64,000 nt of DNA from a phage, in NCBI GenBank assembly GCA_033664045.1, contig GCA_033664045.1_3674.1; one strand, given 5' to 3'. The notes under the pieces are model-generated. The model searched no databases, was not told the origin of the DNA, and was given only the letters and a program-made list of their open reading frames with translations. The stretch's first letter is position 1; each line of letters starts with the position of its first letter. The position numbers and the translations under genes were made by a program. Positions 4,443-46,668 of this stretch are shown one piece after another.

Positions 4443-5903
4443 TTACTTAGCGTACTCGATTAATTCCACAGTTTTCCCAAAGCTAGGGATATAATTTTTA
4501 TTATACCCTTCGGTGAGAACCCATAAAGTATCGTACTTTTTCCACTTGTTGTCAACAGCCTTTTGTTCAAAGTTATGCTCAAAGTATAGGTCGGTCAGGA
4601 CGATGACATCTTTTGCATTTGGTATGTTGGCATCCAGATACTCGAACACGCAAGCAGCTGTTGTGCCCCATGTTGAGTGGACCTCATAGTTGATCATCTC
4701 GTCTATGTTGCCGCGAGTATATACTTTAACCTCTCCGACTTCAGTTGACCAACAGAACATTGTAACCTTAAACTCTTTATACAGATTGCACAATCCGGTG
4801 ATTTCATTGAACATTTTCTTTAAAGTTCTTTGAGAGATCGAGCCAGAAACGTCTAAAGCTACCACAATATCTATGGTGTTTTCCGGATTACGACCAGGAA
4901 CAATAACGTGCTGGTTCTTGTTTATAGCCCCAACTTTTCGCATTGTGCTGGTCAAAGACCCAGATCGGCGACCAGGTTTTCTGTAGGTCAGTTCAGCCTT
5001 TCGTTTAGACAACATGCGTTGCTTAATGATGTCTATATAGTTGATTACAGGCTTGCCTCTGTTCTTGACAAACTCACGCACCGCCTCAGGGCAACGGCCT
5101 CCGGACGCTTGCATTGCTGCTTCCAGCATGTCACCAGAGTCTTGCATGGCCTGATCTTTATCAGATTGGCTGATTACAGGTTGTGGCTGATCATACCCCA
5201 TAGCCTTTCCAAGATCATCACTGGTACCACCGTTCCCACTCATGTGATCATCTGTTTGTCGCTTATCTCCTTGAGAGTTCTCACCTTTACCGCTCTTATT
5301 TTTACCGTTATTCTGATCTCTTTGCTTATCAAGAACTGCATAGACGTTCTCAGCAATCCATCCATGAAACCTCATGTCGCAGTAGCAGCTGGCTAAGAAA
5401 CCAAAAGGCTTACCTTTCACGAACGTAGTGCTTTTCCCCTTCGGGAAGAAAACACAAGGAGGCTTGCTAAAGTCAACCACAAGTCCTGTGTTGATAACGT
5501 GATCACAAGCAATATTGAACAGTTCCGGCTCAAAGCTTTTACCACGGACCAGGTGATCACAGATAATATGCCCCACCTCATGCGACAGAAGAAAGGCCAC
5601 CTCTTTCACAGATTTTGGGGAATAGAAAACTTCAGCCATCTCAAACTGCTCGTTAGTTAGAGAGGCCTTAAGAATAGCCTTGCGTTCATCAGCCAACCCC
5701 ATAATGAACTCAGGACTGTAATAGATACGTTTATGGTCGGTTGCCATGGTAGAGCACCATGTGTGGTTCTCTACGAACTGCAACCCTGACAGTAGTGTGC
5801 CATAAAACGGCAGCTTTTCAAGAAGATACATACGTGCAGCCTGCAACATTCTCAGGGCATCATCTTTCTGTGAGGCAATGATTTCTGAACTTCTGCTATC
5901 CAT
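4443..5903 (-). CDS. Metallopeptidase-like (HExxH) plus von Willebrand factor A domain protein
   Basis: HEVGHIICDH (HExxH) in the N-terminal half; DIVVALDVSGSIS MIDAS-like motif in the C-terminal half; start placed at ATG 5903 (track start 5924 is TTG) with GGAG site. Confidence 0.7.
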   Translation of the reverse strand: MDSRSSEIIASQKDDALRMLQAARMYLLEKLPFYGTLLSGLQFVENHTWCSTMATDHKRIYYSPEFIMGLADERKAILKASLTNEQFEMAEVFYSPKSVKEVAFLLSHEVGHIICDHLVRGKSFEPELFNIACDHVINTGLVVDFSKPPCVFFPKGKSTTFVKGKPFGFLASCYCDMRFHGWIAENVYAVLDKQRDQNNGKNKSGKGENSQGDKRQTDDHMSGNGGTSDDLGKAMGYDQPQPVISQSDKDQAMQDSGDMLEAAMQASGGRCPEAVREFVKNRGKPVINYIDIIKQRMLSKRKAELTYRKPGRRSGSLTSTMRKVGAINKNQHVIVPGRNPENTIDIVVALDVSGSISQRTLKKMFNEITGLCNLYKEFKVTMFCWSTEVGEVKVYTRGNIDEMINYEVHSTWGTTAACVFEYLDANIPNAKDVIVLTDLYFEHNFEQKAVDNKWKKYDTLWVLTEGYNKNYIPSFGKTVELIEYAK

Positions 5904-5936
5904 TAAAACTCCAGAAGGGGCCAATGGCCCCTGTCA

Positions 5937-6926
5937 TTATTTAACGTGTTTGAAAATACCTGCCAACTCGGTCATTGTCATGCGGGTGGTCTTCATAAGG
6001 TCTGTCATAGCCTTCTCCATAATTGGAGATACTACCATAAAGTTACCCTTGGTGAAACCTTTATTCCAGTCGGTCACTAATAGTGGTTTAAGTCCGACCC
6101 CGAGACGCTCACCAGTTAAAGCACAACATTTTCGAATGTACGTGCTCTTAAATTGACTGAATGACAGATCAACTTTCATACCTGCATCGTAGAACGTCTG
6201 ACAATAGAAAGTGTAAGCTTTGGCAATCTCAACATCGTCAGGCAGTGCAGGAACCTCTTCTGTGAGCTCTTCTTCGTCCCCTTGAGGCTCTTTTTCCTCT
6301 TCGTAAGCCTGTTGCGCCACTTCTTTAATCTCCTCTGCTGCAGGCTCGTTTACAATGTCAGAAATGTGCTTGTTGGCTCCACGGTTAGCCATGAAGTTTT
6401 TAAAATCCTGCATTGGTGACATATCTTCCTCCCATTCTTCGTCAAAGAGTGCCAGTTTATCCTCTTCCGTCCCATATTGCAAGATGAAATCTTCAAAAGT
6501 GTAATCACCTTTCAATTTCTCCATGCGCTCTTCGCTCAGGTGGAGCATCATCTGCTGGACAATTTTTCGATCAGTTTTGTCTTTAATCAAGATTGCGGTC
6601 TTTTTATCTACCAGGCAGTCTTTCAGAGAGTTACACCTCAATCCTACCACACAACAGTTATCAATTGCGTAAGGACCTTCATCATCTATCCGCTCCAGAG
6701 ATGGGTAGAAAGGATTCCCCAGCCCGTTTTCATCTGTGTGCATGTCGAAAGGTATAAGGGTATAGTCGCATACCCCCTCTCCTAAAAGTTTTTTACCAAA
6801 TAGGAGGTATTCTTCCCATGACAGGTTGAACTCTATATCTCGTTTCCGTGCATTATTTTGTTTGCGTCTGTATTTTTTGAGCAGGCGCTCTAACTCTTCT
6901 GGTGTATAATATTTTTCAAGATTCAT
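5937..6926 (-). CDS. Hypothetical protein (acidic central region)
   Basis: Track ORF 5937..7121 trimmed to the internal Met (MNLEKYY…) because the upstream part overlaps the divergent promoter region. Confidence 0.5.
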   Translation of the reverse strand: MNLEKYYTPEELERLLKKYRRKQNNARKRDIEFNLSWEEYLLFGKKLLGEGVCDYTLIPFDMHTDENGLGNPFYPSLERIDDEGPYAIDNCCVVGLRCNSLKDCLVDKKTAILIKDKTDRKIVQQMMLHLSEERMEKLKGDYTFEDFILQYGTEEDKLALFDEEWEEDMSPMQDFKNFMANRGANKHISDIVNEPAAEEIKEVAQQAYEEEKEPQGDEEELTEEVPALPDDVEIAKAYTFYCQTFYDAGMKVDLSFSQFKSTYIRKCCALTGERLGVGLKPLLVTDWNKGFTKGNFMVVSPIMEKAMTDLMKTTRMTMTELAGIFKHVK

Positions 6927-6957
6927 AAGTTGTCTCTTGTGCCCTGTAGGTGAAGAA

Positions 6958-6986
6958 ATCTTATCAAGTGCCTCGACAGATGTCAA
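6958..6986 (-). promoter_or_regulatory. Sigma70-like promoter for the leftward block
   Basis: Minus strand: TTGACA (6986-6981), 17-bp spacer, TAAGAT (6963-6958). Confidence 0.45.
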
Positions 6987-6999
6987 CCTCAAAAACGTG

Positions 7000-7028
7000 T
7001 TGACTTTACTATAAATCCACGATATAGT
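7000..7028 (+). promoter_or_regulatory. Sigma70-like promoter for the rightward block
   Basis: TTGACT (7000-7005), 17-bp spacer, TATAGT (7023-7028). Confidence 0.5.
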
Positions 7029-7068
7029 GCACCCATTCGAAAGAAAACGAACACAGGAGCACTTAATC

Positions 7069-7968
7069 ATGGCAAATCTTAACAGCTTTAGCACTCGGTG
7101 GAAACAAGATATCACAACCAATCTCTCAGCAGGTGATATCCTTTCTGCAATTTACGAGGCTTTGGATGATAAAGCTACTTCAAAATCGGTTTGTACCAAC
7201 CCGCTAATTCCTGTAGTAATGAAGGTTATTGAGCGTAGGCTGGTATCCGGATCTGATAAGTGGACATATCTGGATAATGGAGGCCACACTTACTCCAACG
7301 GCTATGTCGATATAAAAGTAGAATATGCGGTATCATATCGCCGGAGCGGCTCTGTAACTTTCAACTTCTCTGGTGGTTTCCGATCTCTGGCAACTTCACC
7401 TTTTGTTTCCTCAGAGGAGAAGTTTGAACTTCCGTTCCTTTGGATGATGGCTAACGCGACAGGCAAAACCCCTGTAAGCATTCGCGTAAAATACAACTAC
7501 AATGGATCTAGTAAGATCTATGCCGAGAGTGTCTCAGCAAGTTTTTATTTTGTGATGGGGGATGGAATCCTCAAACATATAAAGATGTGTGATATGCATG
7601 ATGTTATAAATGAAGTGACTGATAAGAATGTTCTGGTGAAGGATCTCAACAATTTTTATACACCGGGAGACTATTACGTCAACCGTCCACTGTGCATCTT
7701 TAATGCTGCACACCCTTTAGGTGAGTATTTGATTGCCAATAGTGATATTGCCAATAACCGCTTCGAGGTATCAAGAGTACAGAATGAGGTGTTGACATCT
7801 TGCAAGAGCGGTGATAAGTTTACCGAAGAAGAGATGGGTGTTTTAGAGATGATGGGATATAAGTGTAGCCTTTGGGTAGATGAGGTGTTTAATGACGGCA
7901 TCTATGGACAGGATATTTACCCGTTAAAGAAGTACACTGATTCCAGTTTAATTTACGCGGAGATTTGA
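7069..7968 (+). CDS. Hypothetical protein (299 aa)
   Basis: Track ORF; start at ATG 7069 after AGGAG site, downstream of the promoter. Confidence 0.55.
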   Translation: MANLNSFSTRWKQDITTNLSAGDILSAIYEALDDKATSKSVCTNPLIPVVMKVIERRLVSGSDKWTYLDNGGHTYSNGYVDIKVEYAVSYRRSGSVTFNFSGGFRSLATSPFVSSEEKFELPFLWMMANATGKTPVSIRVKYNYNGSSKIYAESVSASFYFVMGDGILKHIKMCDMHDVINEVTDKNVLVKDLNNFYTPGDYYVNRPLCIFNAAHPLGEYLIANSDIANNRFEVSRVQNEVLTSCKSGDKFTEEEMGVLEMMGYKCSLWVDEVFNDGIYGQDIYPLKKYTDSSLIYAEI

Positions 7969-7970
7969 CT

Positions 7971-8243
7971 ATGATGAAGTCATGTGGTAGTGTATATTAT
8001 GTTGGTGAGAATGTTCAGGCAGATAGTGTGTGGAAATCCATTAAGTCCACCACCGATGATGCCTTCTTGAGCGGGTTATGTTTCCCCAATCCCGGAGACA
8101 TTCTCCCTCACCCTGGGGATTTTGTTGTCAACAAGACGGACGGTTATACAGTGTGCCTGATGGTTGAAAAAATCTTTTTAGACACTAGACACAATCACCG
8201 TCTTGTGTTAAAATTTCAAGAATGTAAAATGACAATTGCCTAA
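7971..8243 (+). CDS. Hypothetical protein
   Basis: Track ORF; ATG 7971 preferred over TTG 7965. Confidence 0.5.
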   Translation: MMKSCGSVYYVGENVQADSVWKSIKSTTDDAFLSGLCFPNPGDILPHPGDFVVNKTDGYTVCLMVEKIFLDTRHNHRLVLKFQECKMTIA

Positions 8244-8256
8244 GGAGGCCTTACCT

Positions 8257-8613
8257 ATGTCTAAAGTTACTTATCGTGCAGCTATTTACTGCAATGAGCA
8301 CCCAATCAATAATGATGGTCACTGCCTTTTTAAAGAAAATCAGTTGGGCTGCATTGTCCTCCCTGATGAAGGGGAAGGTTATCTGATTGCATTGACAGGG
8401 TTTGAGCCTGAAGCTCTGGAAGCCAATCTGGACTACCTGGTGGAAGAGGGTGCTGCAGACTTGGTTGCCAATGGCCTCTCTGTAAGCCTTGACGAAGTGG
8501 AGCGCTTCATGGGCAATTACCGTGTAGTGCGTGAGTTTACTATCGAGGTGGAAACTCCAGAGTGGGGTAGCACTGAAACTAATGCCGAAGAAAAAGAAGA
8601 GGAGGTAGAATAA
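8257..8613 (+). CDS. Hypothetical acidic protein
   Basis: AGGAGG site then ATG 8257. Confidence 0.55.
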   Translation: MSKVTYRAAIYCNEHPINNDGHCLFKENQLGCIVLPDEGEGYLIALTGFEPEALEANLDYLVEEGAADLVANGLSVSLDEVERFMGNYRVVREFTIEVETPEWGSTETNAEEKEEEVE

Positions 8614-8870
8614 TGAAAGTACAGATCTTGACTAATGCCGAGAAGATGTTTATTGAAGATACACCTTTTGAAGCTGGTGAGCTCCAGTTTGTTTATTTTG
8701 TTGACTTAGATAAGGTGTTTCCTGCACTGAATCTGGGTCTGGATGAAGTTCCTCATAAGGTTTTGTGTCAAGTTGTTCGTGCCTTAGCGGCAGATGGAGA
8801 GTTCCACACCCTTCAAGATATCCAGACCTACGGGTATCTTGAACTACAACGAGAAGAAGAGGTGAACTGA
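8613..8870 (+). CDS. Hypothetical protein
   Basis: GAGGAGG site; overlapping stop/start. Confidence 0.55.
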   Translation: MKVQILTNAEKMFIEDTPFEAGELQFVYFVDLDKVFPALNLGLDEVPHKVLCQVVRALAADGEFHTLQDIQTYGYLELQREEEVN

Positions 8871-8872
8871 TA

Positions 8873-9253
8873 ATGGCCCGGTGGAAGACAACAGTTGACC
8901 TGCATGATCAGTGGTTAGGACGCATCACTGAAGACGGGAAACTAGCGGAGTGGGACAATAAGCATGTTAGCGAGTTGGCAAGCATTGTGGCTGGCAAGTT
9001 ACGCTCCAAGTTCCCTGAACAACTGAATCCTGATAGTTCAAAGTTCGATCCTGAGTTGGAGGATGTTGTATACTACTTCGATACCGTGGATGACTACGAT
9101 GCGTGGCTTGCAGCACGGGAGCTTTACCCACAAGGCTCTGCTATGCGCCAGATGGAAGAAGATTATCCTCCGTGCGAGCAATTTAATAGCGCAATGACTT
9201 GCCTCTACGATTGGGCAGATAAGAACCTTGTCTGGATTCGGACTGCATTCTAG
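8873..9253 (+). CDS. Hypothetical protein
   Basis: Track ORF. Confidence 0.5.
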   Translation: MARWKTTVDLHDQWLGRITEDGKLAEWDNKHVSELASIVAGKLRSKFPEQLNPDSSKFDPELEDVVYYFDTVDDYDAWLAARELYPQGSAMRQMEEDYPPCEQFNSAMTCLYDWADKNLVWIRTAF

Positions 9254-9259
9254 CAGGCG

Positions 9260-9562
9260 GTGGCAAGGATGCCACTTAAAAGAGTAATGAACATGTTATA
9301 CCAGAAACACGAACTTTGTGCAGAAAAAGAGTTAAATTTTGACAAAGTTATCCACAGATATTGTTATGGAAAAACCGGAAGACAACTAAGAAGATGCACT
9401 CCAGCATTCTTTCACCCCAGCAGGCGGCTAAGTCCTGAAGAGGCGACAGCAGAAAGGGTTGCATACAACTGGGAAGTTGTGTACGATATTGACAGATCCG
9501 ATGTGACATCTGTTTTGGAAAACTTTGAAAACACTTACACACAAGTAGAGGACTTTTACTAA
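9260..9562 (+). CDS. Hypothetical protein
   Basis: Track ORF; exact start uncertain. Confidence 0.4.
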   Translation: MARMPLKRVMNMLYQKHELCAEKELNFDKVIHRYCYGKTGRQLRRCTPAFFHPSRRLSPEEATAERVAYNWEVVYDIDRSDVTSVLENFENTYTQVEDFY

Positions 9563-10746
9563 TGTCAAGAAACGTATTTGAAAGTGGTCAAATCACTGTC
9601 CGTGAGTTGCCAGCTATCATTCAGTTCGCCCAGCGTCATAACCGATCTGTCCTGATTTTAGGACCAATGGGCGTGGGTAAGAGCCAGGTGATGAAGCAGA
9701 TTGCAGATAATATGTTCGGTGAGCGAGATGACAACCTGGTTGACGTGCGACTGTCAGATAAAGATCCTGCTGACTTATCTGGGCTACCTATCCCTGTAGA
9801 AGCGGATGGAACTACACGTACAGTGTTTGCAATTCCAGAATTTTGGCCTGCAGATCCGGACTGGAGCGGAATTATCTTTCTAGATGAGCTTACCCATGCA
9901 GATAATTACCTGCAGAAGGTTGCAATGCAAATTATGCTCGACCACAAGTGCGGCACTTATGCATTCCCTAAGGGCTCTGTTTTTGTAGCTGCAGGTAACC
10001 GTTCTACAGATGGTGCTGTTCTTTCAGCGCTTGAAGCACCTCTGGCTAACCGCTTTATCATTGTAGAGGTTACAAGCAATGCAGAGGTGTTTATTGAGGA
10101 CTATGCATTCCTCAACGGGGTGCACTCCTCTGTAATTGGGTATTTGAAAAGAGTTCCATCAGCTATCGATAATTATGAGGCTATGGCTGAGATTAATTGT
10201 CCATCTTTTGCCACACCGCGATCTTGGGTTGCTGCATCTGATATCTTGCACGATTTTGACAGCGGTATTATTTCTGACGCTATGGCCCGTGTTCTTCTGC
10301 AAGGTGCTATTGGTCACACTGCAGCGGTAGAGATCTGGACTTACCACACCAAAAAACGCAACTTACCGGAAATCGGTCGGATTATGGCAGGAGGTTGCAA
10401 AGAATACGTAGGTCCTAAACAGCCAGACATCTTGTGGATTCTTGGATCTGAAGGTTGTATCGCTATTCGTAATATGATGGAAAATGCAAGTATCTCCGAC
10501 GAAGATCTTGTTAGCTGTGTGGCAAACTTCCTCGATTTCCTTTGGGAAAATTTCAAGGACGAGAACCGAGATTTTGTATTCTCAGTCTTTATGGCGATGA
10601 TGAAACCTAATGCCTTAGGAAATGCCTTGCTTATCGGTAAAGGGCGTGACAAGATTGTTGCTCAGCTGATCAAAGCATACCCAAACCTGATGAAGATTGT
10701 AAAAGAGTTTGGTGAAGAGTTTAGCGCCATTTTGGCTAAAGCTTGA
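9562..10746 (+). CDS. MoxR-like AAA+ ATPase
   Basis: Walker A GPMGVGKS, Walker B IIFLDEL, sensor/Arg-finger-like AAGNRS and LANRF. Confidence 0.8.
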   Translation: MSRNVFESGQITVRELPAIIQFAQRHNRSVLILGPMGVGKSQVMKQIADNMFGERDDNLVDVRLSDKDPADLSGLPIPVEADGTTRTVFAIPEFWPADPDWSGIIFLDELTHADNYLQKVAMQIMLDHKCGTYAFPKGSVFVAAGNRSTDGAVLSALEAPLANRFIIVEVTSNAEVFIEDYAFLNGVHSSVIGYLKRVPSAIDNYEAMAEINCPSFATPRSWVAASDILHDFDSGIISDAMARVLLQGAIGHTAAVEIWTYHTKKRNLPEIGRIMAGGCKEYVGPKQPDILWILGSEGCIAIRNMMENASISDEDLVSCVANFLDFLWENFKDENRDFVFSVFMAMMKPNALGNALLIGKGRDKIVAQLIKAYPNLMKIVKEFGEEFSAILAKA

Positions 10747-10755
10747 GGAGGTTGT

Positions 10756-11136
10756 ATGGCTAAAGTAGGTAAGCGGGGAAACTACTTGGTAGTATTGACC
10801 GAGGAGCCGGAGAAGGAGTACGAATGCAGCTCCACTTGCGTGATCGATATCCGAGAAAAAGATGTAGATGAAATCTGGTTTGAAATATTAGATGCTTGCG
10901 ACAGCAGTGATTATTTCTTCATCTATGTCAACGATAAAGCTGGGTTCTTCCATGACGACGGAGAGTTGCCGTATGAAATCTATGAACTTGTAGAGGCTTG
11001 CCATCGTGGAGATGCGGAGTTGTTTGGCTTACGGCTGAAAAGCGGTAAATTCTTCTATCAAGATGAGTGCATGAATCTTCATAACTTTGTAGAGGGAACT
11101 TGCAACGATGGAGAGATTTTGGCACACTACGATTAA
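10756..11136 (+). CDS. Hypothetical protein
   Basis: GAGGAGG site; terminator follows. Confidence 0.55.
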   Translation: MAKVGKRGNYLVVLTEEPEKEYECSSTCVIDIREKDVDEIWFEILDACDSSDYFFIYVNDKAGFFHDDGELPYEIYELVEACHRGDAELFGLRLKSGKFFYQDECMNLHNFVEGTCNDGEILAHYD

Positions 11137-11148
11137 TTTCTAAGACCA

Positions 11149-11175
11149 CCCCGCTTCGGCGGGGATTTTCTATTT
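11149..11175 (+). terminator. Rho-independent terminator
   Basis: CCCCGC-TTCG-GCGGGG hairpin followed by ATTTTCTATTT. Confidence 0.65.
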
Positions 11176-13674: not shown

Positions 13675-14880
13675 ATGATTTTCATCTACGAACATTTCAA
13701 AACCCGTAAAGAAGCACGAGACCGCCGTGCAGAACTGGAGAAAAAGGGTTTCACATGTGCCATTGAGAAAGGCGACACAACCTGGACACTGGCAGTGGGT
13801 GCCCCAGAGTTGTTCGATCCTGACCGTGACAGCGTCTGCTACACCCGTGAGGATTTTGAAACCCGCGAAGAGGCCCGTTTATTTCGATATGGTCTGGAAG
13901 ATAACGGCAAGTACGCTATGATCTTAGATTTAGGCGAAGGTTCCGTTAAACGTTGGGGCGTGGTATATCCCCTGTGTGTTGTTCACGGTGTGGGGTTCAC
14001 TGGGGTGGCAATCAAGTCAGAAGAACCTTTAGTAGAAGTCAAAGATCCGGTGCTGGAGGTGGTGAGCAGTGTGTCTCAGCAACAGACTCGAAGCATCGAG
14101 CCTTTGGTAGTTATTTGTGGGGAACTCCTCCAGATCACCTGCAACGAAGGTATTTTTGAAATTCGCCGCAGTGAAAGTGAGGAAGTTTACCAGAAAGTCT
14201 TCGACCATATCTCTGTTCAGGAATATGATGAGGCAATTGGTGAAATCCTTGTCTGGCTGGAACGCAAGAATGAGTTCACCACACTTGCAGACAACCTGAT
14301 CATGAAAGATGGTAAGCTCTACTACTACGGTGTAGAGATGCGATCCACCATTGCAAAGAAAATTGAGAAAGACTATGCAGACGGAACACTGGATGACCGC
14401 TATGTGAAATTCCTCGTTCGCCTGCTACGCAATCCTTCTGCAAAATCTGTAAACATGCTCTACGATTTTATGCAGGCCAACGATATCCAGATTGCAGAAG
14501 ATGGTCGAATCGTTTGCTACAAAGGTGTTCAGTTTAACGGCAGCAAGTGGGTGGATTGGCACAGTGGTAAAGTTCCACAATACCAGGGTGCTTTTGTATC
14601 CATGCCTCGTAACTTTGTAGAGGATGATCCGGAAGCTGCGTGCTCCTATGGCTTACACTGCGCCAGCAAAGAGTATGCAAAAAGCTACGGCACTGTAATG
14701 ACTGTTATGGTTGACCCTGCAGATGTGGTTAGTGTGCCATACCAACACAATAGCGCCAAGTGCCGTGCATGCCGCTATGAGATTGTGGTAGCTCCGGAAG
14801 CACGCAAGGACGGAGACCCGATTGAATACGTGGTTGACAGAGATGGTAACACTATCGACATTCTTTACGAGGAGGTGTAA
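13675..14880 (+). CDS. Hypothetical protein with N-terminal tandem repeat, possibly rIIB-like
   Basis: Track ORF; two repeats FKTRKEARDRRAELEKKGF / FETREEARLFRYGLEDNGK; translationally coupled to both neighbours. Confidence 0.5.
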   Translation: MIFIYEHFKTRKEARDRRAELEKKGFTCAIEKGDTTWTLAVGAPELFDPDRDSVCYTREDFETREEARLFRYGLEDNGKYAMILDLGEGSVKRWGVVYPLCVVHGVGFTGVAIKSEEPLVEVKDPVLEVVSSVSQQQTRSIEPLVVICGELLQITCNEGIFEIRRSESEEVYQKVFDHISVQEYDEAIGEILVWLERKNEFTTLADNLIMKDGKLYYYGVEMRSTIAKKIEKDYADGTLDDRYVKFLVRLLRNPSAKSVNMLYDFMQANDIQIAEDGRIVCYKGVQFNGSKWVDWHSGKVPQYQGAFVSMPRNFVEDDPEAACSYGLHCASKEYAKSYGTVMTVMVDPADVVSVPYQHNSAKCRACRYEIVVAPEARKDGDPIEYVVDRDGNTIDILYEEV

Positions 14881-16250
14881 TGGAAAAAGGGCAGTATGAT
14901 GTAGGCACAGATGCTGCCCTCGTTGCAATCATGAGCGGTGAGAATGTCTTCGTTTCAGGACCCGCAGGTTGTGGGAAGACGTACCTCATCAACATGATCC
15001 AGTCAATGTATGGAGACTCTTGCATAACGGTTGCCCCGACAGGGGTAGCCGCTTTAAACGTTAATGGAGCAACAGCACACCGAACCTTCGATCTTGCAGC
15101 AGGTGTGAGCATGGAGTCAGACTGGACCGCAATAAGGGCAAAAACAGCAAAGCCTTTGAAAAGCAAGGCATTTACCATCCTAATTATCGATGAAATCTCT
15201 ATGATCCGTGCTGATAAGTTTATAGAGATGGATAGGAAACTTCGCTTCCTTCGAAAAAATGACAAACCTTTCGGAGGCATACAGGTCATATTGTTTGGCG
15301 ACTTTTACCAGGCACCTCCTGTTGTCTCTTCTATGGAGAAGGAAGCCTACTTCAACTTCTACCATACGGACCTGTGTTGCTATACCGAATCTTGGAAAGA
15401 GCTTGACCTCCACAACATAGCCCTAGTAGATCAGTTCCGACAGGAGTCTATTCGATTTGCCACAATGCTCAACTGTGTTCGTGAGGGTCGTCGCATAAAA
15501 GAGGTTGTAGCAGAGCTTAATGCTCGCTGTTACAAAGGCGGTGTACCAACAGACGCTCTCACAATTTGCGCCACCAACAAACAAGCAGAGGAAGTGAACA
15601 GAAGGTTCTATGATGCCATCAACGCCCCAGAGAAGGTATACACTGGTGAAATGAAGGGTAAGTTTCCCTCCACCCTACCAGTTGAGCAGGAGATGAAGTT
15701 GAAAATTGGCATGAAAGTTATGATAACCGCCAACGATGTTGACCCAACGCACAAAGTACCTTATTATGTTAACGGAACACGTGCCACAATTGTTAAATTT
15801 AAGAACAAGGCAGTGGTGGTAGAGCTTGAAGATGGAACACAGGTTGACATAGAGCAGATGTTGTGGGAGAATAACGAATATAAGCCATCTCAGAGATACA
15901 ACATTGCAGAAAGGAAGATGGAGAAGTTTATAGAGAGGGTAGTGATCGGGTCATATAAGCAACTCCCTCTGAAATCTGGGTACGCCGTAACATCTCATAA
16001 AAGTCAAGGACTTACACTAGATTGTTACAACCTAGACCTTGGAAAGAACGGAGCTTTCTCTCCTGGGATGACGTATGTCGCTTTGAGTAGAGTTAAGACA
16101 ATACAAGGAATAAACTTGTTGCGTCCACTAAGAGAGGTTGACATTATTGTTGACCCGCGAGTCGTAGAGTTTTACAATACAACATTCCCTGACTTAGACA
16201 AAATTGTCAGGAAAGATTTTGAAACCAGAGCCGAAGAGGGGGACGTATGA
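14880..16250 (+). CDS. Pif1/RecD/Dda-like DNA helicase
   Basis: Walker A GPAGCGKT, Walker B LIIDEISM, GDFYQAPPV, VTSHKSQGLT. Confidence 0.85.
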   Translation: MEKGQYDVGTDAALVAIMSGENVFVSGPAGCGKTYLINMIQSMYGDSCITVAPTGVAALNVNGATAHRTFDLAAGVSMESDWTAIRAKTAKPLKSKAFTILIIDEISMIRADKFIEMDRKLRFLRKNDKPFGGIQVILFGDFYQAPPVVSSMEKEAYFNFYHTDLCCYTESWKELDLHNIALVDQFRQESIRFATMLNCVREGRRIKEVVAELNARCYKGGVPTDALTICATNKQAEEVNRRFYDAINAPEKVYTGEMKGKFPSTLPVEQEMKLKIGMKVMITANDVDPTHKVPYYVNGTRATIVKFKNKAVVVELEDGTQVDIEQMLWENNEYKPSQRYNIAERKMEKFIERVVIGSYKQLPLKSGYAVTSHKSQGLTLDCYNLDLGKNGAFSPGMTYVALSRVKTIQGINLLRPLREVDIIVDPRVVEFYNTTFPDLDKIVRKDFETRAEEGDV

Positions 16251-16588
16251 GTTTGTGGAGAAATATAGTTAACTACGTGTGCGGCAATCCAACTCCTGAA
16301 GAGAAGGATGTTGTGATTCACGATTTTACTAAAAGATCTCGTGAAAAAGATCTACTGCTAACAAAGGTGACTGATAAAGATCCTGCAGTAGGGGACTGGG
16401 CAGGTTTTGCGTTTACATCGGACAAATACACCTTTAACAAAGGTGACTACCTTGTTGTAGATTTTAACGAAGACATCGAGGGTGCTGAACCTTACTATCA
16501 GACCCTTATTGTTGCAGGGTGTGTTGATCTCTCTGCAGGCATGCACAGTTTGATTCTTTTTGAGCTTGACTCTGAAGACCTTGAGTAG
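16247..16588 (+). CDS. Hypothetical protein
   Basis: Track ORF; 4-nt overlap with helicase. Confidence 0.5.
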   Translation: MSLWRNIVNYVCGNPTPEEKDVVIHDFTKRSREKDLLLTKVTDKDPAVGDWAGFAFTSDKYTFNKGDYLVVDFNEDIEGAEPYYQTLIVAGCVDLSAGMHSLILFELDSEDLE

Positions 16589-44030: not shown

Positions 44031-45446
44031 CAAGTTTTTCTCCTCTTTGTCAAGTGCTGCATGAAAAATTTACAAACTGGTATGGTAGCATTTTTGCGGC
44101 CCTGTTTACATTCAGTAATGTATGTATAATCCTTGTTGTGTGGGCGTTTGGACGTCTAGACGGTTGGAAGTCTGCAGGTCAATATCTAATCTATTGGCTG
44201 CTAACTATATCCCACACAAATAGTAAGAAATATGATTGTTATATGCGTAAACAGTAACTCATGTTATCAATCCCTGTATGTATCGCCAGTGGTGCGCATA
44301 ATGGGTATTATGTTAAATTGCCCGTAATGATAACTATTCTCACAATGATAGGTATTCTCATTCACCCCCACAAGATAGGTTGCAAATGTTGTGCCACTGT
44401 GTGAACGGCCTCACCTATTAATTTGCCTCACTGCCTCGATATTTGAGAATTGTTATAAGAATGAGAAGTATTCCCATTCCGTCCGCCTGGCAGCACTCCA
44501 GTCGCTACGGCTCATAACAGGGCAGAACTGGGTCCATTCAGATATTTCTGGCTGGCTCTTCAGGTCTGTGTGGGAAAAGCCAACCTCTCCTGCGGCGGGG
44601 AGGGGGTCAATTAAAAAATTTACGTGGTATATGTAGCGCTGTTCAGGTAAGGCATGTATTATGGGATGAAATCCTCTTCAGGCAATGATATTTGTGGGTG
44701 TGATATTTGCTGGAAAGCCAGATATGACGGGACTCCCGGCGGGGCAGGGGTGGTACAGACAGGGAAAATATGGAGGATGTGGTTGGGTGAATTGATCAGA
44801 CAGGTAGAGTATGGAATATGTTACAAGTATGTTAAATATGAAGGGTGAATATCTGTAGGATTTGTGTGTAAAATCAAAGACTTAAGTAGTGTTGTGGTAT
44901 TTTCTATAAATAATTCAAGTTTAATAGGTAATATTTGTCTCTATCCACTTTGTGTGGTAAACAAATTCAGATGAGATTGGTTTACAAGTGTATACATAAT
45001 ATACAAATTAAAGATACAAGAAACCCCCCTCCCCCTTCGGCTACCATTCACCTTTTCCTCTGACTGGTACTTAAACACTTATTCAGACTCTTCAGGTTAT
45101 CACCCATATATCATATGGCAGTGACTGGTGTCCTCCGGCCCCTCTTTCGTCACCCGTCCGCTTCGCCATGCTAATGCCATAGCCAAATGTTCGGTTGTTC
45201 ACCCTGTTCACTCAGGTGTATCTCCATACCCCTTCAAACCGAAGAGAACAGAAAACCCGAATTACTCGGTAAAAGAAAAGAGAAGAACTTAATTTTATCA
45301 AGATAGGCAAGAATGTCAAGGCATGACTGCTCACTAAACAAGCAAACAGTCATGTGCGGTAGGTAAGTGATTGTGGTTGTAGGAAATTTAATTGAAAGAT
45401 GTGTTATAGGTGCTTCCAGCACTTTAGCCTGGCAGCTAATTGTGTG

Positions 45447-45662
45447 TCAGTCCAGCGGTTCATCCTCTACTTCACTGAAATCAATGTTCATGGTCTCTTC
45501 CCAACCATCGATCTCAGCACAAGAGTGGAGTTCTTTAGGGTTTACTCCCAAAGCCTCAGCAACAGAGTCTATATTTAACACCTCTGGCAGGTATGATTCA
45601 TCGAATTCAAGGTAAATCAGGCCACGAGTGTTGTCAGCTCCACCAAATATTTCTATCTTCAT
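45447..45662 (-). CDS. Hypothetical acidic protein
   Basis: Track ORF; last gene of the leftward block. Confidence 0.45.
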   Translation of the reverse strand: MKIEIFGGADNTRGLIYLEFDESYLPEVLNIDSVAEALGVNPKELHSCAEIDGWEETMNIDFSEVEDEPLD

Positions 45663-45783
45663 GAAATCTCCTCTGGAAATGAGAGTGTGAACAGGGTTTC
45701 ATACGTTCCAGTGCACAGGAATTATGCACGTTTGCCTCTTCAGGCCATGCTTTAGCATGAGAAACCTGTGTGGGCTCGGTGCT

Positions 45784-46089
45784 TCATAGTCTACCACCTC
45801 TGAACTCCTCGTGCTCAGGCATAATAGAGAACCAGATATCTACGATGTCTTCCCACGTTAAGTCATCAGCCTCAGGATCTACCTGGAGCGAAGATGGAGA
45901 ATCTTCAGAATCGAAGTTTTCCTCTTTAACTGGCTCATCCAAGGGACATATAGTCACTCCTTTGGATGTCTCTTCAGATGCATGTGTGTTGATCATGTTC
46001 CACCAGTGAGTATTCCTGCAACAGCCGCTATGGACGTAATGATCATCAGGATCACCACTAAAACTTCGGACAATGTTTTCATTGTGCAC
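45784..46089 (-). CDS. Hypothetical acidic protein
   Basis: Track ORF; candidate minus-strand promoter at 46115-46143. Confidence 0.45.
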   Translation of the reverse strand: MHNENIVRSFSGDPDDHYVHSGCCRNTHWWNMINTHASEETSKGVTICPLDEPVKEENFDSEDSPSSLQVDPEADDLTWEDIVDIWFSIMPEHEEFRGGRL

Positions 46090-46299
46090 TCCATATTCTC
46101 CAGACTATGTGTGGATACTATCACGAGAGTAGCAATGTGTCAACAGAAACGCCGCGAGGGTTTGGTTAAAATCCGAGCGTATGGTGATTTGGGTCAAAAC
46201 GGACGTGCGTTCTCGCTACGCTCGAAATATGGAGTTGTTTGTAGAAAGCTCTTAAACGCTCTATAATGAGATTATCTGTCCAAGGTATGCAATCGTGCA

Positions 46300-46331
46300 C
46301 TAGATAAAGAAAAGGACGCCACAGAGCGTCC
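46300..46331 (-). terminator. Rho-independent terminator (minus strand)
   Basis: Minus strand GGACGC-TCTGTG-GCGTCC followed by TTTTCTTT. Confidence 0.55.
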
Positions 46332-46356
46332 TAGGTGTCTTAAATTTGATATTTTG

Positions 46357-46668
46357 CTATACCCATGAGGGCTTATCAAGGTTGGAGTAGCTGAAAGGTG
46401 TCAAAAGGTGATTGTCAAAATCTCTCAAACTATCCAGATCTTTTTCCTCGTCCTGACACCATCTGTGCCTACATTTATTGTTGTAGTGCATAGAATGCAT
46501 AGCGTTCTGCAACTTAACAGGCACAAGTGATTCGGGAGTAGATAGTATTGTTGGGTATGCCAGAACCACCTCAAACAGTGGAAACACATCGAAACTAAAG
46601 TCTACCTCTGCAGAGGTTGATGGCATGTAGGAGTATTTAGCCGCCTTTGTAGACATAATCCACCTCAC
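46357..46668 (-). CDS. Hypothetical protein
   Basis: Track ORF. Confidence 0.5.
   Translation of the reverse strand: MRWIMSTKAAKYSYMPSTSAEVDFSFDVFPLFEVVLAYPTILSTPESLVPVKLQNAMHSMHYNNKCRHRWCQDEEKDLDSLRDFDNHLLTPFSYSNLDKPSWV

Follow-up and report, generated by a model that had tools for sequence, protein, structure and literature searches.

The core genome of the N4-like phages (Schitoviridae) comprises 14 genes, two of which, gp24 and gp25, are of unassigned function and belong to the middle genes of N4 (PMC4193335, PMC2784036); the first encodes an AAA ATPase and the second a protein with a von Willebrand factor A (vWA) domain. A comparable combination, a MoxR ATPase with a metallopeptidase-vWA protein, was described by Iyer et al. 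(2021) in the group 2.2 jumbo phages as a "chaperone-cochaperone pair" (PMC7824862). In NorQ/NorD the hexamer of the ATPase is plugged by the vWA domain, a finger of which occupies the central pore, and the partner's linker is remodelled by ATP hydrolysis, a mode that has been proposed as common to MoxR/vWA couples in general (PMC9976466, PMC13036017). The vWA-MoxR ternary conflict systems of multicellular bacteria likewise have a core of MoxR and vWA, and their vWA component carries fused effector domains, in some cases peptidases (Kaur et al. 2020, PMC7159879). In the present study a phage locus of this kind was analysed, situated at positions 4443–10746 of a 64,000 nt stretch of DNA (GenBank assembly GCA_033664045.1, contig GCA_033664045.1_3674.1; the whole stretch is referred to as the window), where the open reading frames (ORFs) of a MoxR-class AAA+ ATPase (9562–10746, plus strand) and of a protein combining an HExxH metallopeptidase with a vWA domain (4443–5903, minus strand; hereafter the peptidase-vWA protein) lie on opposite strands with their coding ends 3,658 nt apart.

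When the locus was compared with these systems, both N4 proteins were found to be homologous to those of the window and to share their domain architecture, and the setting is alike in that expression appears to be pre-late (middle genes in N4, PMC4193335) and rIIA/rIIB genes are located nearby in both genomes. In N4 and all sampled Schitoviridae, however, the two genes are co-directional and either adjacent or separated by 1–2 small ORFs, whereas 3.66 kb and a change of strand separate them in the window, and the rV5-type proteins are longer than those of N4, with a C-terminal extension in the ATPase and a disordered linker in the peptidase-vWA protein. The group 2.2 jumbo phages have the same two-gene architecture but with adjacent genes. 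NorQ/NorD and CbbQ/CbbO are more distant; their ATPases show only 16–20% identity to the phage ATPase, which adds a C-terminal helical domain of ~120 aa, and their partners, which serve metal insertion or Rubisco activation, are not described with a peptidase domain. The ternary conflict systems differ in being cellular, three-component and defined by VMAP (PMC7159879), while the phage pair is without a VMAP-like third gene; the PADLOC models gave no meaningful match to the locus. A direct orthologue of the window ATPase is bas54_0063 of the rV5-like phage Bas54, and no Vequintavirus ATPase falls below 95% identity to that of the window.

On balance we consider it probable that the two ORFs are halves of one conserved phage module of the N4 gp24/gp25 type, which has been separated by a rearrangement and has an accessory function, likely in counter-defence. 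The 6.3-kb stretch is 95–97% identical to 122 records of rV5-group (Vequintavirus) phages, among them BP9, rV5_ev168 and the BASEL phages, and this similarity identifies the window as an rV5-like coliphage (Vequintavirus); several of the records already carry the labels 'MoxR ATPase' and 'putative metallopeptidase'. The two genes flank a 143-bp divergent region between the start codons ATG 6926 (minus strand) and ATG 7070 (plus strand), containing a putative σ70-like promoter in each direction, TTGACA-17-TAAGAT, TG-extended, on the minus strand (6986–6958) and TTGACT-17-TATAGT on the plus strand (7000–7028). Each matches 10 out of 12 consensus positions, and the hexamers are kept across 5 Vequintavirus genomes with variable bases in the spacers. 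These coordinates and the back-to-back promoters agree with the first-pass annotation, made by a model from the letters alone, which had placed the ATPase and the HExxH-vWA genes about 3.6 kb apart on opposite strands around a divergent promoter. The pair sits in the early region, beside rIIA/rIIB and σ70-like promoters, and the separated genes are probably still co-expressed early from one bidirectional promoter region.

The 394-aa ATPase matched phrog_1297 ('ATPase') at 1e-110 and contains a Walker A motif, GPMGVGKS (9661–9684), and a Walker B motif, FLDE, with D108-E109 at 9883–9888. An alignment of 22 homologues showed G37, G39, K40, S41, D108, E109, N146, R147, R164 and R220 to be invariant, residues assigned by position to Walker A/B, sensor 1, the arginine finger and sensor 2. 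The best match of an ATPase profile among PDB sequences was to the AAA domains of Midasin (8.6e-10); an NCBIfam search gave no meaningful match. The AlphaFold2 (AF2) model (pLDDT, the predicted local distance difference test, 83; pTM, the predicted template-modelling score, 0.76) predicts the strands of a helix-2 insert at residues 75–81 and 84–90, following a helix at 69–73, and a short pre-sensor-1 hairpin at 129–134 in front of the strand 138–145. When this model was run through Foldseek the top 17 matches were all NorQ and CbbQ2 chains (E ~1e-7, template-modelling (TM) score on the target mostly 0.56–0.64), the best solved structures being NorQ alone, NorQ with the NorD VWA domain and the Rubisco activase CbbQ2 (target TM 0.61–0.64). 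The predicted all-helical C-terminal domain (approximately residues 275–394, ~120 residues) has no counterpart in NorQ/CbbQ.

The partner starts at ATG 5903 with a GGAG five bases upstream. Both of its domains were recovered by Pfam above the cut-offs, DUF2201_N (PF13203, 'putative metallopeptidase') with E=6e-28 and 98.6 bits (cut-off 23.2) and DUF2201 ('VWA-like') at residues 353–488 with E=3.6e-11 and 43.7 bits (cut-off 26.4), which together with the conserved motifs bears out the architecture proposed in the first-pass annotation. Across 27 homologues the HExxH motif has invariant H108 and H112, with E109 found in 26; beyond the motif H117 is conserved in at least 90% and R120, N130 and D134 are invariant, H117 and D134 being conserved candidates for the third zinc ligand. 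The full set of residues of the metal ion-dependent adhesion site (MIDAS), D351-x-S353-x-S355, T414 and D438, is likewise invariant. The disordered linker is longer in the rV5-like proteins than in environmental relatives. A Foldseek search of the PDB with the full model found matches to the vWA part and no solved structure resembling the zincin domain; a match to Ro60 in this search was dropped as a meaningful relative for its low TM of 0.23. No peptidase assay of a DUF2201 protein and no relevant 'DUF2201' paper were found in the literature searched. Both genes are under purifying selection; dN/dS, the ratio of non-synonymous to synonymous substitution rates, was 0.019–0.021 for the ATPase and 0.015–0.032 for the peptidase-vWA protein in comparisons with two genomes, BP9 (L001) and L002.

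The labels derived from PHROG for this protein look wrong and are widespread in GenBank. The DUF2201 peptidase-vWA family, phrog_1314, carries the name 'HNH endonuclease', which touches the window gene, N4 gp25, CR9 gp127 and Mydo gp042 and seems to be a mis-annotation propagated through many GenBank records; the peptidase-vWA protein of phage Ettore is labelled 'homing endonuclease'. Other doubtful labels are 'ATPase' for the 100-aa ORF at 9260–9562 (phrog_13164) and that of the gene at 5937–6926.

In nearly all distant relatives (31–40% identity) the rule is adjacency. In contigs from Logan, JGI and ENA with ATPase homologues at 35–39% identity a DUF2201 gene lies directly downstream on the same strand. 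An alignment of the ATPase used as query reached 79 loci in IMG/VR (a single-protein scan of viral contigs had recovered close relatives alone), and six-frame searches with hidden Markov models (HMMs) located the partner, adjacent and co-directional, in 68 of them; nine stop too early to judge and two are without partner, giving 68 out of 70 loci with room to judge, in the order ATPase then peptidase-vWA. The adjacent, co-directional pair is also found in N4 (gp24/gp25), PBECO4, CR9, W70 and a chromosomal locus of Streptomyces. The rV5-family HMMs recognised gp24 and gp25 of N4 (1.2e-59 and 1.5e-47) and both genes in the jumbo phages PBECO4 (1e-83 and 7e-98) and pEa_SNUABM_50 (7e-86 and 2.5e-95). 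A scan of genomes returned four loci, including the chromosomal Streptomyces pair (L095) and an N4-like phage contig binned in a metagenome-assembled genome (L092; RNA polymerase, helicase and PolA as neighbours).

A tblastn search (E<=1e-10) of 50,697 phage records found the ATPase in 745 and the peptidase-vWA protein in 465. All six further records sampled from the list of ATPase matches carry the partner co-directionally (the N4-like SPSP, RiverRider, Axy04 and UCB24 and the jumbo phages pEa_SNUABM_50 and Ettore), which suggests that the difference is at least partly due to the sensitivity of the search; in Axy04 two small ORFs lie between the pair and in Ettore there is a 2.9-kb insert including a gene annotated 'homing endonuclease'. 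With a peptidase-vWA profile 25,525 cluster representatives (50% identity) were recovered at E<=1e-3. Since the genomes examined that have one gene also have the other, the co-presence is not due to chance, and by homology both ORFs are orthologues of a pair that is adjacent almost everywhere else, that is, a real two-gene module. The first-pass annotation had suggested a physically separated MoxR/vWA-metallopeptidase pair, and its co-occurrence across relatives proved strongly positive. In the loci of CR9, W70, L008 and L009 these two genes alone are detectably similar to the window (15–19 kb in CR9 and W70), showing that they were retained jointly while their surroundings turned over. Elsewhere the pair is found among genes of nucleotide metabolism and replication and not in head or tail modules, with genes for thymidylate synthase or dCTP/deoxycytidine deaminase a few genes downstream in several lineages; an exception is the jumbo Erwinia phage pEa_SNUABM_50, where it follows genes annotated 'putative structural protein'.

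The arrangement on opposite arms, with gaps of 3.5–4.6 kb, is seen only in Vequintavirus, Seunavirus and Mydovirus and in one unclassified group (L004–L007, 73% identity). Certrevirus CR9 and phage W70, which also belong to Vequintavirinae, have the adjacent pair 1.2–2 kb downstream of a divergent promoter region. A rearrangement in the lineage of Vequintavirus, Seunavirus and Mydovirus would have moved the peptidase-vWA gene to the other arm of the bidirectional early promoter region. A single inversion of the block consisting of the promoters, the small genes and the ATPase would suffice, leaving both genes under the shared control region; we infer this as the parsimonious scenario and not as a reconstruction, since genomes with the split pair and genomes with the adjacent pair do not share their flanking genes. 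Both genes are always retained in the split-lineage genomes examined, with MIDAS, HExxH and AAA+ motifs intact.

Functional data come from the HIDEN-SEQ preprint (bioRxiv 10.1101/2025.11.20.689424), in which transposon insertions were mapped in Bas54. The orthologues in this phage are bas54_0055 ('putative metallopeptidase', 1461 nt, minus strand) and bas54_0063 ('MoxR ATPase', 1185 nt, plus strand), and gene order and lengths are identical to those of the window, with a gap of ~3.65 kb. Both are non-essential on E. coli K-12, insertions being found at 81 of 86 TA sites in bas54_0055 and 60 of 64 in bas54_0063 (10.1101/2025.11.20.689424). As its orthologue tolerates insertions to this extent the peptidase-vWA protein is not structural, a role that the first-pass annotation had named as one that would speak against its proposal. 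Knocking out bas54_0063 makes the phage specifically sensitive to DS-28, a predicted defence system of two genes from the clinical strain CFE311, and so does knocking out the unrelated small gene bas54_0140 (10.1101/2025.11.20.689424). When K-12 was compared with CFE311 the ATPase insertions vanished (log2 fold change (log2FC) -7.23) and insertions in the peptidase-vWA gene were depleted 4.6-fold (log2FC -2.20, p=0.0009, q=0.009, 85 sites), with the neighbours of bas54_0055 unaffected (0054 +0.46, 0056 -0.08) (10.1101/2025.11.20.689424). These values stand in Extended Data Table 8, sheet 'Data S6', which is titled 'resampling_K-12_vs_CFE303' but whose command line names B54_2_311, and they were therefore taken as CFE311. 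A polar effect on bas54_0051 (-2.28) as cause of the depletion was ruled out, insertions in the intervening 0053 and 0054 being undepleted.

Dispensability together with host-dependent depletion argues against an essential morphogenetic role and favours an accessory, host-dependent one. The module is accessory, neither essential nor structural, and its most likely role in the rV5-like phages is counter-defence; against DS-28 this has been shown for the ATPase orthologue, while the orthologue of the peptidase-vWA gene shows a moderate co-depletion in the same host. The preprint draws no link between bas54_0063 and bas54_0055 (10.1101/2025.11.20.689424). In the literature searched DS-28 is essentially undescribed, no paper treats both rV5 and MoxR, and papers on CRISPRi-ART, on antisense oligonucleotides (ASO) and on another transposon screen do not mention these genes. 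The 99-aa ORF at 46357–46656 (minus strand, phrog_12072) is very probably the window orthologue of bas54_0140, as indicated by the matching lengths of the downstream ORFs (327, 306, 264, 288, 330, 351 and 258 nt).

A mechanism can be outlined from the models and from the known couples. The ATPase half would form a NorQ/CbbQ-like AAA+ ring, presumably hexameric, and the other half would be a single adaptor/effector that joins a zincin (HExxH) peptidase domain to a vWA domain with a MIDAS. If the known couples are a guide, the ring would receive the vWA domain, an acidic residue of the client would be held at the MIDAS site, and ATP hydrolysis would drive a remodelling of adaptor or client that lets the attached peptidase cleave the client. 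The invariant FCWSTxVG hairpin (residues 383–390) is a candidate for a vWA loop that reaches into the pore of the ring, as in NorQ/NorD. The client might be a DS-28 component, a phage protein by which DS-28 is triggered, or something else; DS-28 is now a lead to the target in infection that the first-pass annotation had called unknown. In a bolder version, which is possible but which we regard as doubtful, modules of the N4 gp24/gp25 type would serve phages generally as an ATP-driven counter-defence machine, in which the MoxR ring uses the MIDAS adaptor to capture host immune proteins such as DS-28A/B and the zincin destroys them; if true, it would have no described precedent among bacteriophages as an AAA+-powered anti-immunity protease.

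Several observations weigh against reading the two ORFs as one working module. The window ATPase is itself below the gathering scores of Pfam AAA_3/AAA_5 (AAA_5 16.7 bits against 22), although homologues at 31–35% identity match AAA_5 (2.4e-9), AAA_3 (3.1e-8) and bpMoxR; of the MoxR type proposed in the first-pass annotation the fold, the motifs, phrog_1297 and the homologues speak in favour, and membership follows by transitive homology and fold and not from the protein's own Pfam score. The case for co-expression consists of consensus matches in the divergent promoters, and a synteny reconstruction of the inversion failed, the flanks in CR9, W70, L008 and L009 sharing nothing detectable with the window besides the pair. 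For no member of the family was a complex or proteolysis found to be directly demonstrated. The peptidase-vWA phenotype in CFE311 is far weaker than that of the ATPase (~4.6-fold against complete loss), several unrelated Bas54 genes are likewise near -2.2 in this host, the second gene required against DS-28 is the small protein bas54_0140 and not peptidase-vWA, and the DS-28 knock-outs of the preprint took in bas54_0063 and bas54_0140 and not bas54_0055. The two-component remodelling or proteolytic module of the first-pass annotation therefore holds as far as conserved pairing and motifs go, while the physical cooperation of its halves is conjectural and the phenotypes of the two genes are unequal. 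It is these unequal phenotypes (-7.23 and -2.20), together with bas54_0140 as second anti-DS-28 gene, that make a functional uncoupling the most serious rival: once the genes had been split, the anti-DS-28 factor would be the ATPase, acting by itself or together with a different partner such as bas54_0140, and the peptidase-vWA protein would have a separate accessory role. The placement of the two genes on different transcription units agrees with this, and the extra C-terminal helical domain of the ATPase could bind other partners. Such an uncoupling would however leave unexplained why every split-lineage genome examined retains both genes with intact motifs and dN/dS near 0.02, and why the peptidase gene is significantly depleted in CFE311 when its operon neighbours are not. 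Moreover, bas54_0140-like genes occur in 118 Vequintavirus records only, compared with 745 phage records for the ATPase and 465 for peptidase-vWA; being confined to Vequintavirus while the family is spread over many phage lineages, bas54_0140 is not the general partner of the family. We regard the uncoupling as rather unlikely.

A chaperone for virion assembly with a maturation protease, by analogy with the MoxR/vWA pair of Acidianus two-tailed virus (tail development), was proposed for the jumbo-phage homologues (Iyer et al. 2021, PMC7824862), and the position of the pEa_SNUABM_50 pair behind genes for putative structural proteins is in line with it. This proposal does not fit Bas54, where both orthologues are dispensable for plaques on K-12 with ~94% of the TA sites hit; nor does it fit the placement of the window pair in the early region, judged by σ70-like promoters and rIIA/rIIB, the middle genes of N4 amid nucleotide-metabolism and replication genes, or the thymidylate synthase and deaminase genes downstream of the pair in several lineages. 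We consider it very improbable. If anything slightly less credence is due to a chaperone for metal-cofactor insertion or enzyme activation like NorQ/NorD, CbbQ/CbbO and CobS/CobT, acting on a metalloenzyme of phage or host, for example in nucleotide metabolism. It is true that NorQ and CbbQ2 are the closest solved structures and that the pair recurs beside nucleotide-metabolism genes, but the resemblance to NorQ is one of the MoxR fold (16–20% identity) and not of orthology, and the genes are non-essential on K-12 and required solely in a particular clinical host or defence background. CbbO and CobT are not known to carry an HExxH peptidase domain. The phage partner has a conserved HExxH domain, whereas NorD is described with a vWA domain and a linker alone (PMC9976466, PMC13036017).

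The reading as one separated, accessory module builds on what was already known, namely N4 gp24/gp25, the jumbo-phage MoxR/metallopeptidase-vWA kind and the ATPase orthologue as a reported anti-DS-28 factor. It adds that the separated rV5 genes are a pair of the gp24/gp25 type with near-universal adjacency elsewhere, that the split arose inside Vequintavirinae, and that a matching though weaker signal for the partner is present in the published transposon data. What is unusual is the gene arrangement and not a new mechanism, and to a specialist it will not be very surprising. Yet few phage gene pairs that lack a function are as widespread as the gp24/gp25-type pair, and the identification ties the family to genetically tractable coliphages (of the type of BASEL Bas48–57) and to a conditional phenotype, the DS-28 sensitivity of the ATPase mutant, so that the function of the whole family becomes directly testable; the split arrangement also offers natural single-gene handles without operon polarity.

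Table 1. Features of the locus and its surroundings (positions in the window).
Feature	Position	Strand	Basis
Zincin metallopeptidase and vWA/MIDAS protein, 486 aa, N4 gp25 family	4443–5903	-	DUF2201_N and DUF2201
vWA domain, approximately residues 344–486	4446–4874	-	Pfam DUF2201 and vWA fold match; MIDAS DxSxS at 4839–4853
Low-complexity linker, predicted disordered, approximately residues 200–228, inside the peptidase region	5220–5306	-	pLDDT <50; gapped alignment
HExxH motif H108-E109-V-G-H112, putative zinc-binding/catalytic site	5568–5582	-	alignment of 27 homologues
GC-rich palindromic hairpin AGGGGCC-ATT-GGCCCCT	5916–5932	.	perfect 7-bp; in the 33 nt that separate the peptidase-vWA gene from the first leftward gene
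First gene of leftward operon, 329 aa from ATG 6926	5937–6926	-	phrog_3118; 'anti-sigma factor' label in related phages
Divergent intergenic region	6927–7069	.	back-to-back σ70-like promoters, consensus matches
Six small early ORFs of rightward operon, upstream of the ATPase	7070–9562	+	
MoxR-class AAA+ ATPase, 394 aa, N4 gp24 family	9562–10746	+	phrog_1297, homologues and fold
126-aa ORF, phrog_12370, followed by terminator-like hairpin	10756–11164	+	

In the leftward early operon (Table 1) the peptidase-vWA gene is the second gene, and the palindromic hairpin in front of it, which lies just before the ribosome-binding site, may act as an attenuator or in RNA processing or stability. In the rightward operon the last of the small ORFs (9260/9293–9562) overlaps the start of the ATPase gene via TAATG, and the unit probably ends at a strong hairpin resembling an intrinsic terminator at 11149–11164, CCCCGCTTCGGCGGGG followed by a T-run. 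The first rightward gene (7070–7968, plus strand, phrog_12338; labelled 'putative 1-3 fucosyltransferase' in BASEL phages) shows, when compared with BP9, dN 0.067, dS 0.019 and a dN/dS of ~3.5, against 0.015–0.05 for its neighbours, and may be under diversifying selection or be a patch of recombination.

The rIIB gene of the window is located at 13675–14880. The annotation of BP9 (15238–16375) gives a shorter rIIB (900 nt) with an 'IS2 InsA' ORF behind it, suggesting an insertion sequence in rIIB of BP9 that the window is without. Sixteen records of the series MG0656xx, named 'Campylobacter phage' (host C. jejuni) and unannotated, are 95–97% identical to this rV5-like sequence and are probably mislabelled or derived from contaminating coliphages. 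An ORF-poor stretch at approximately 44900–46350 adjoins a sign change in GC skew and a flip in the direction of transcription; a tRNA cluster as its cause was ruled out, the whole window having zero tRNA genes. The stretch seems to match a ~2-kb intergenic region of Bas54 (bas54_0134/0135) in which zero transposon insertions were tolerated, and could be a replication origin or the locus of a non-coding RNA.

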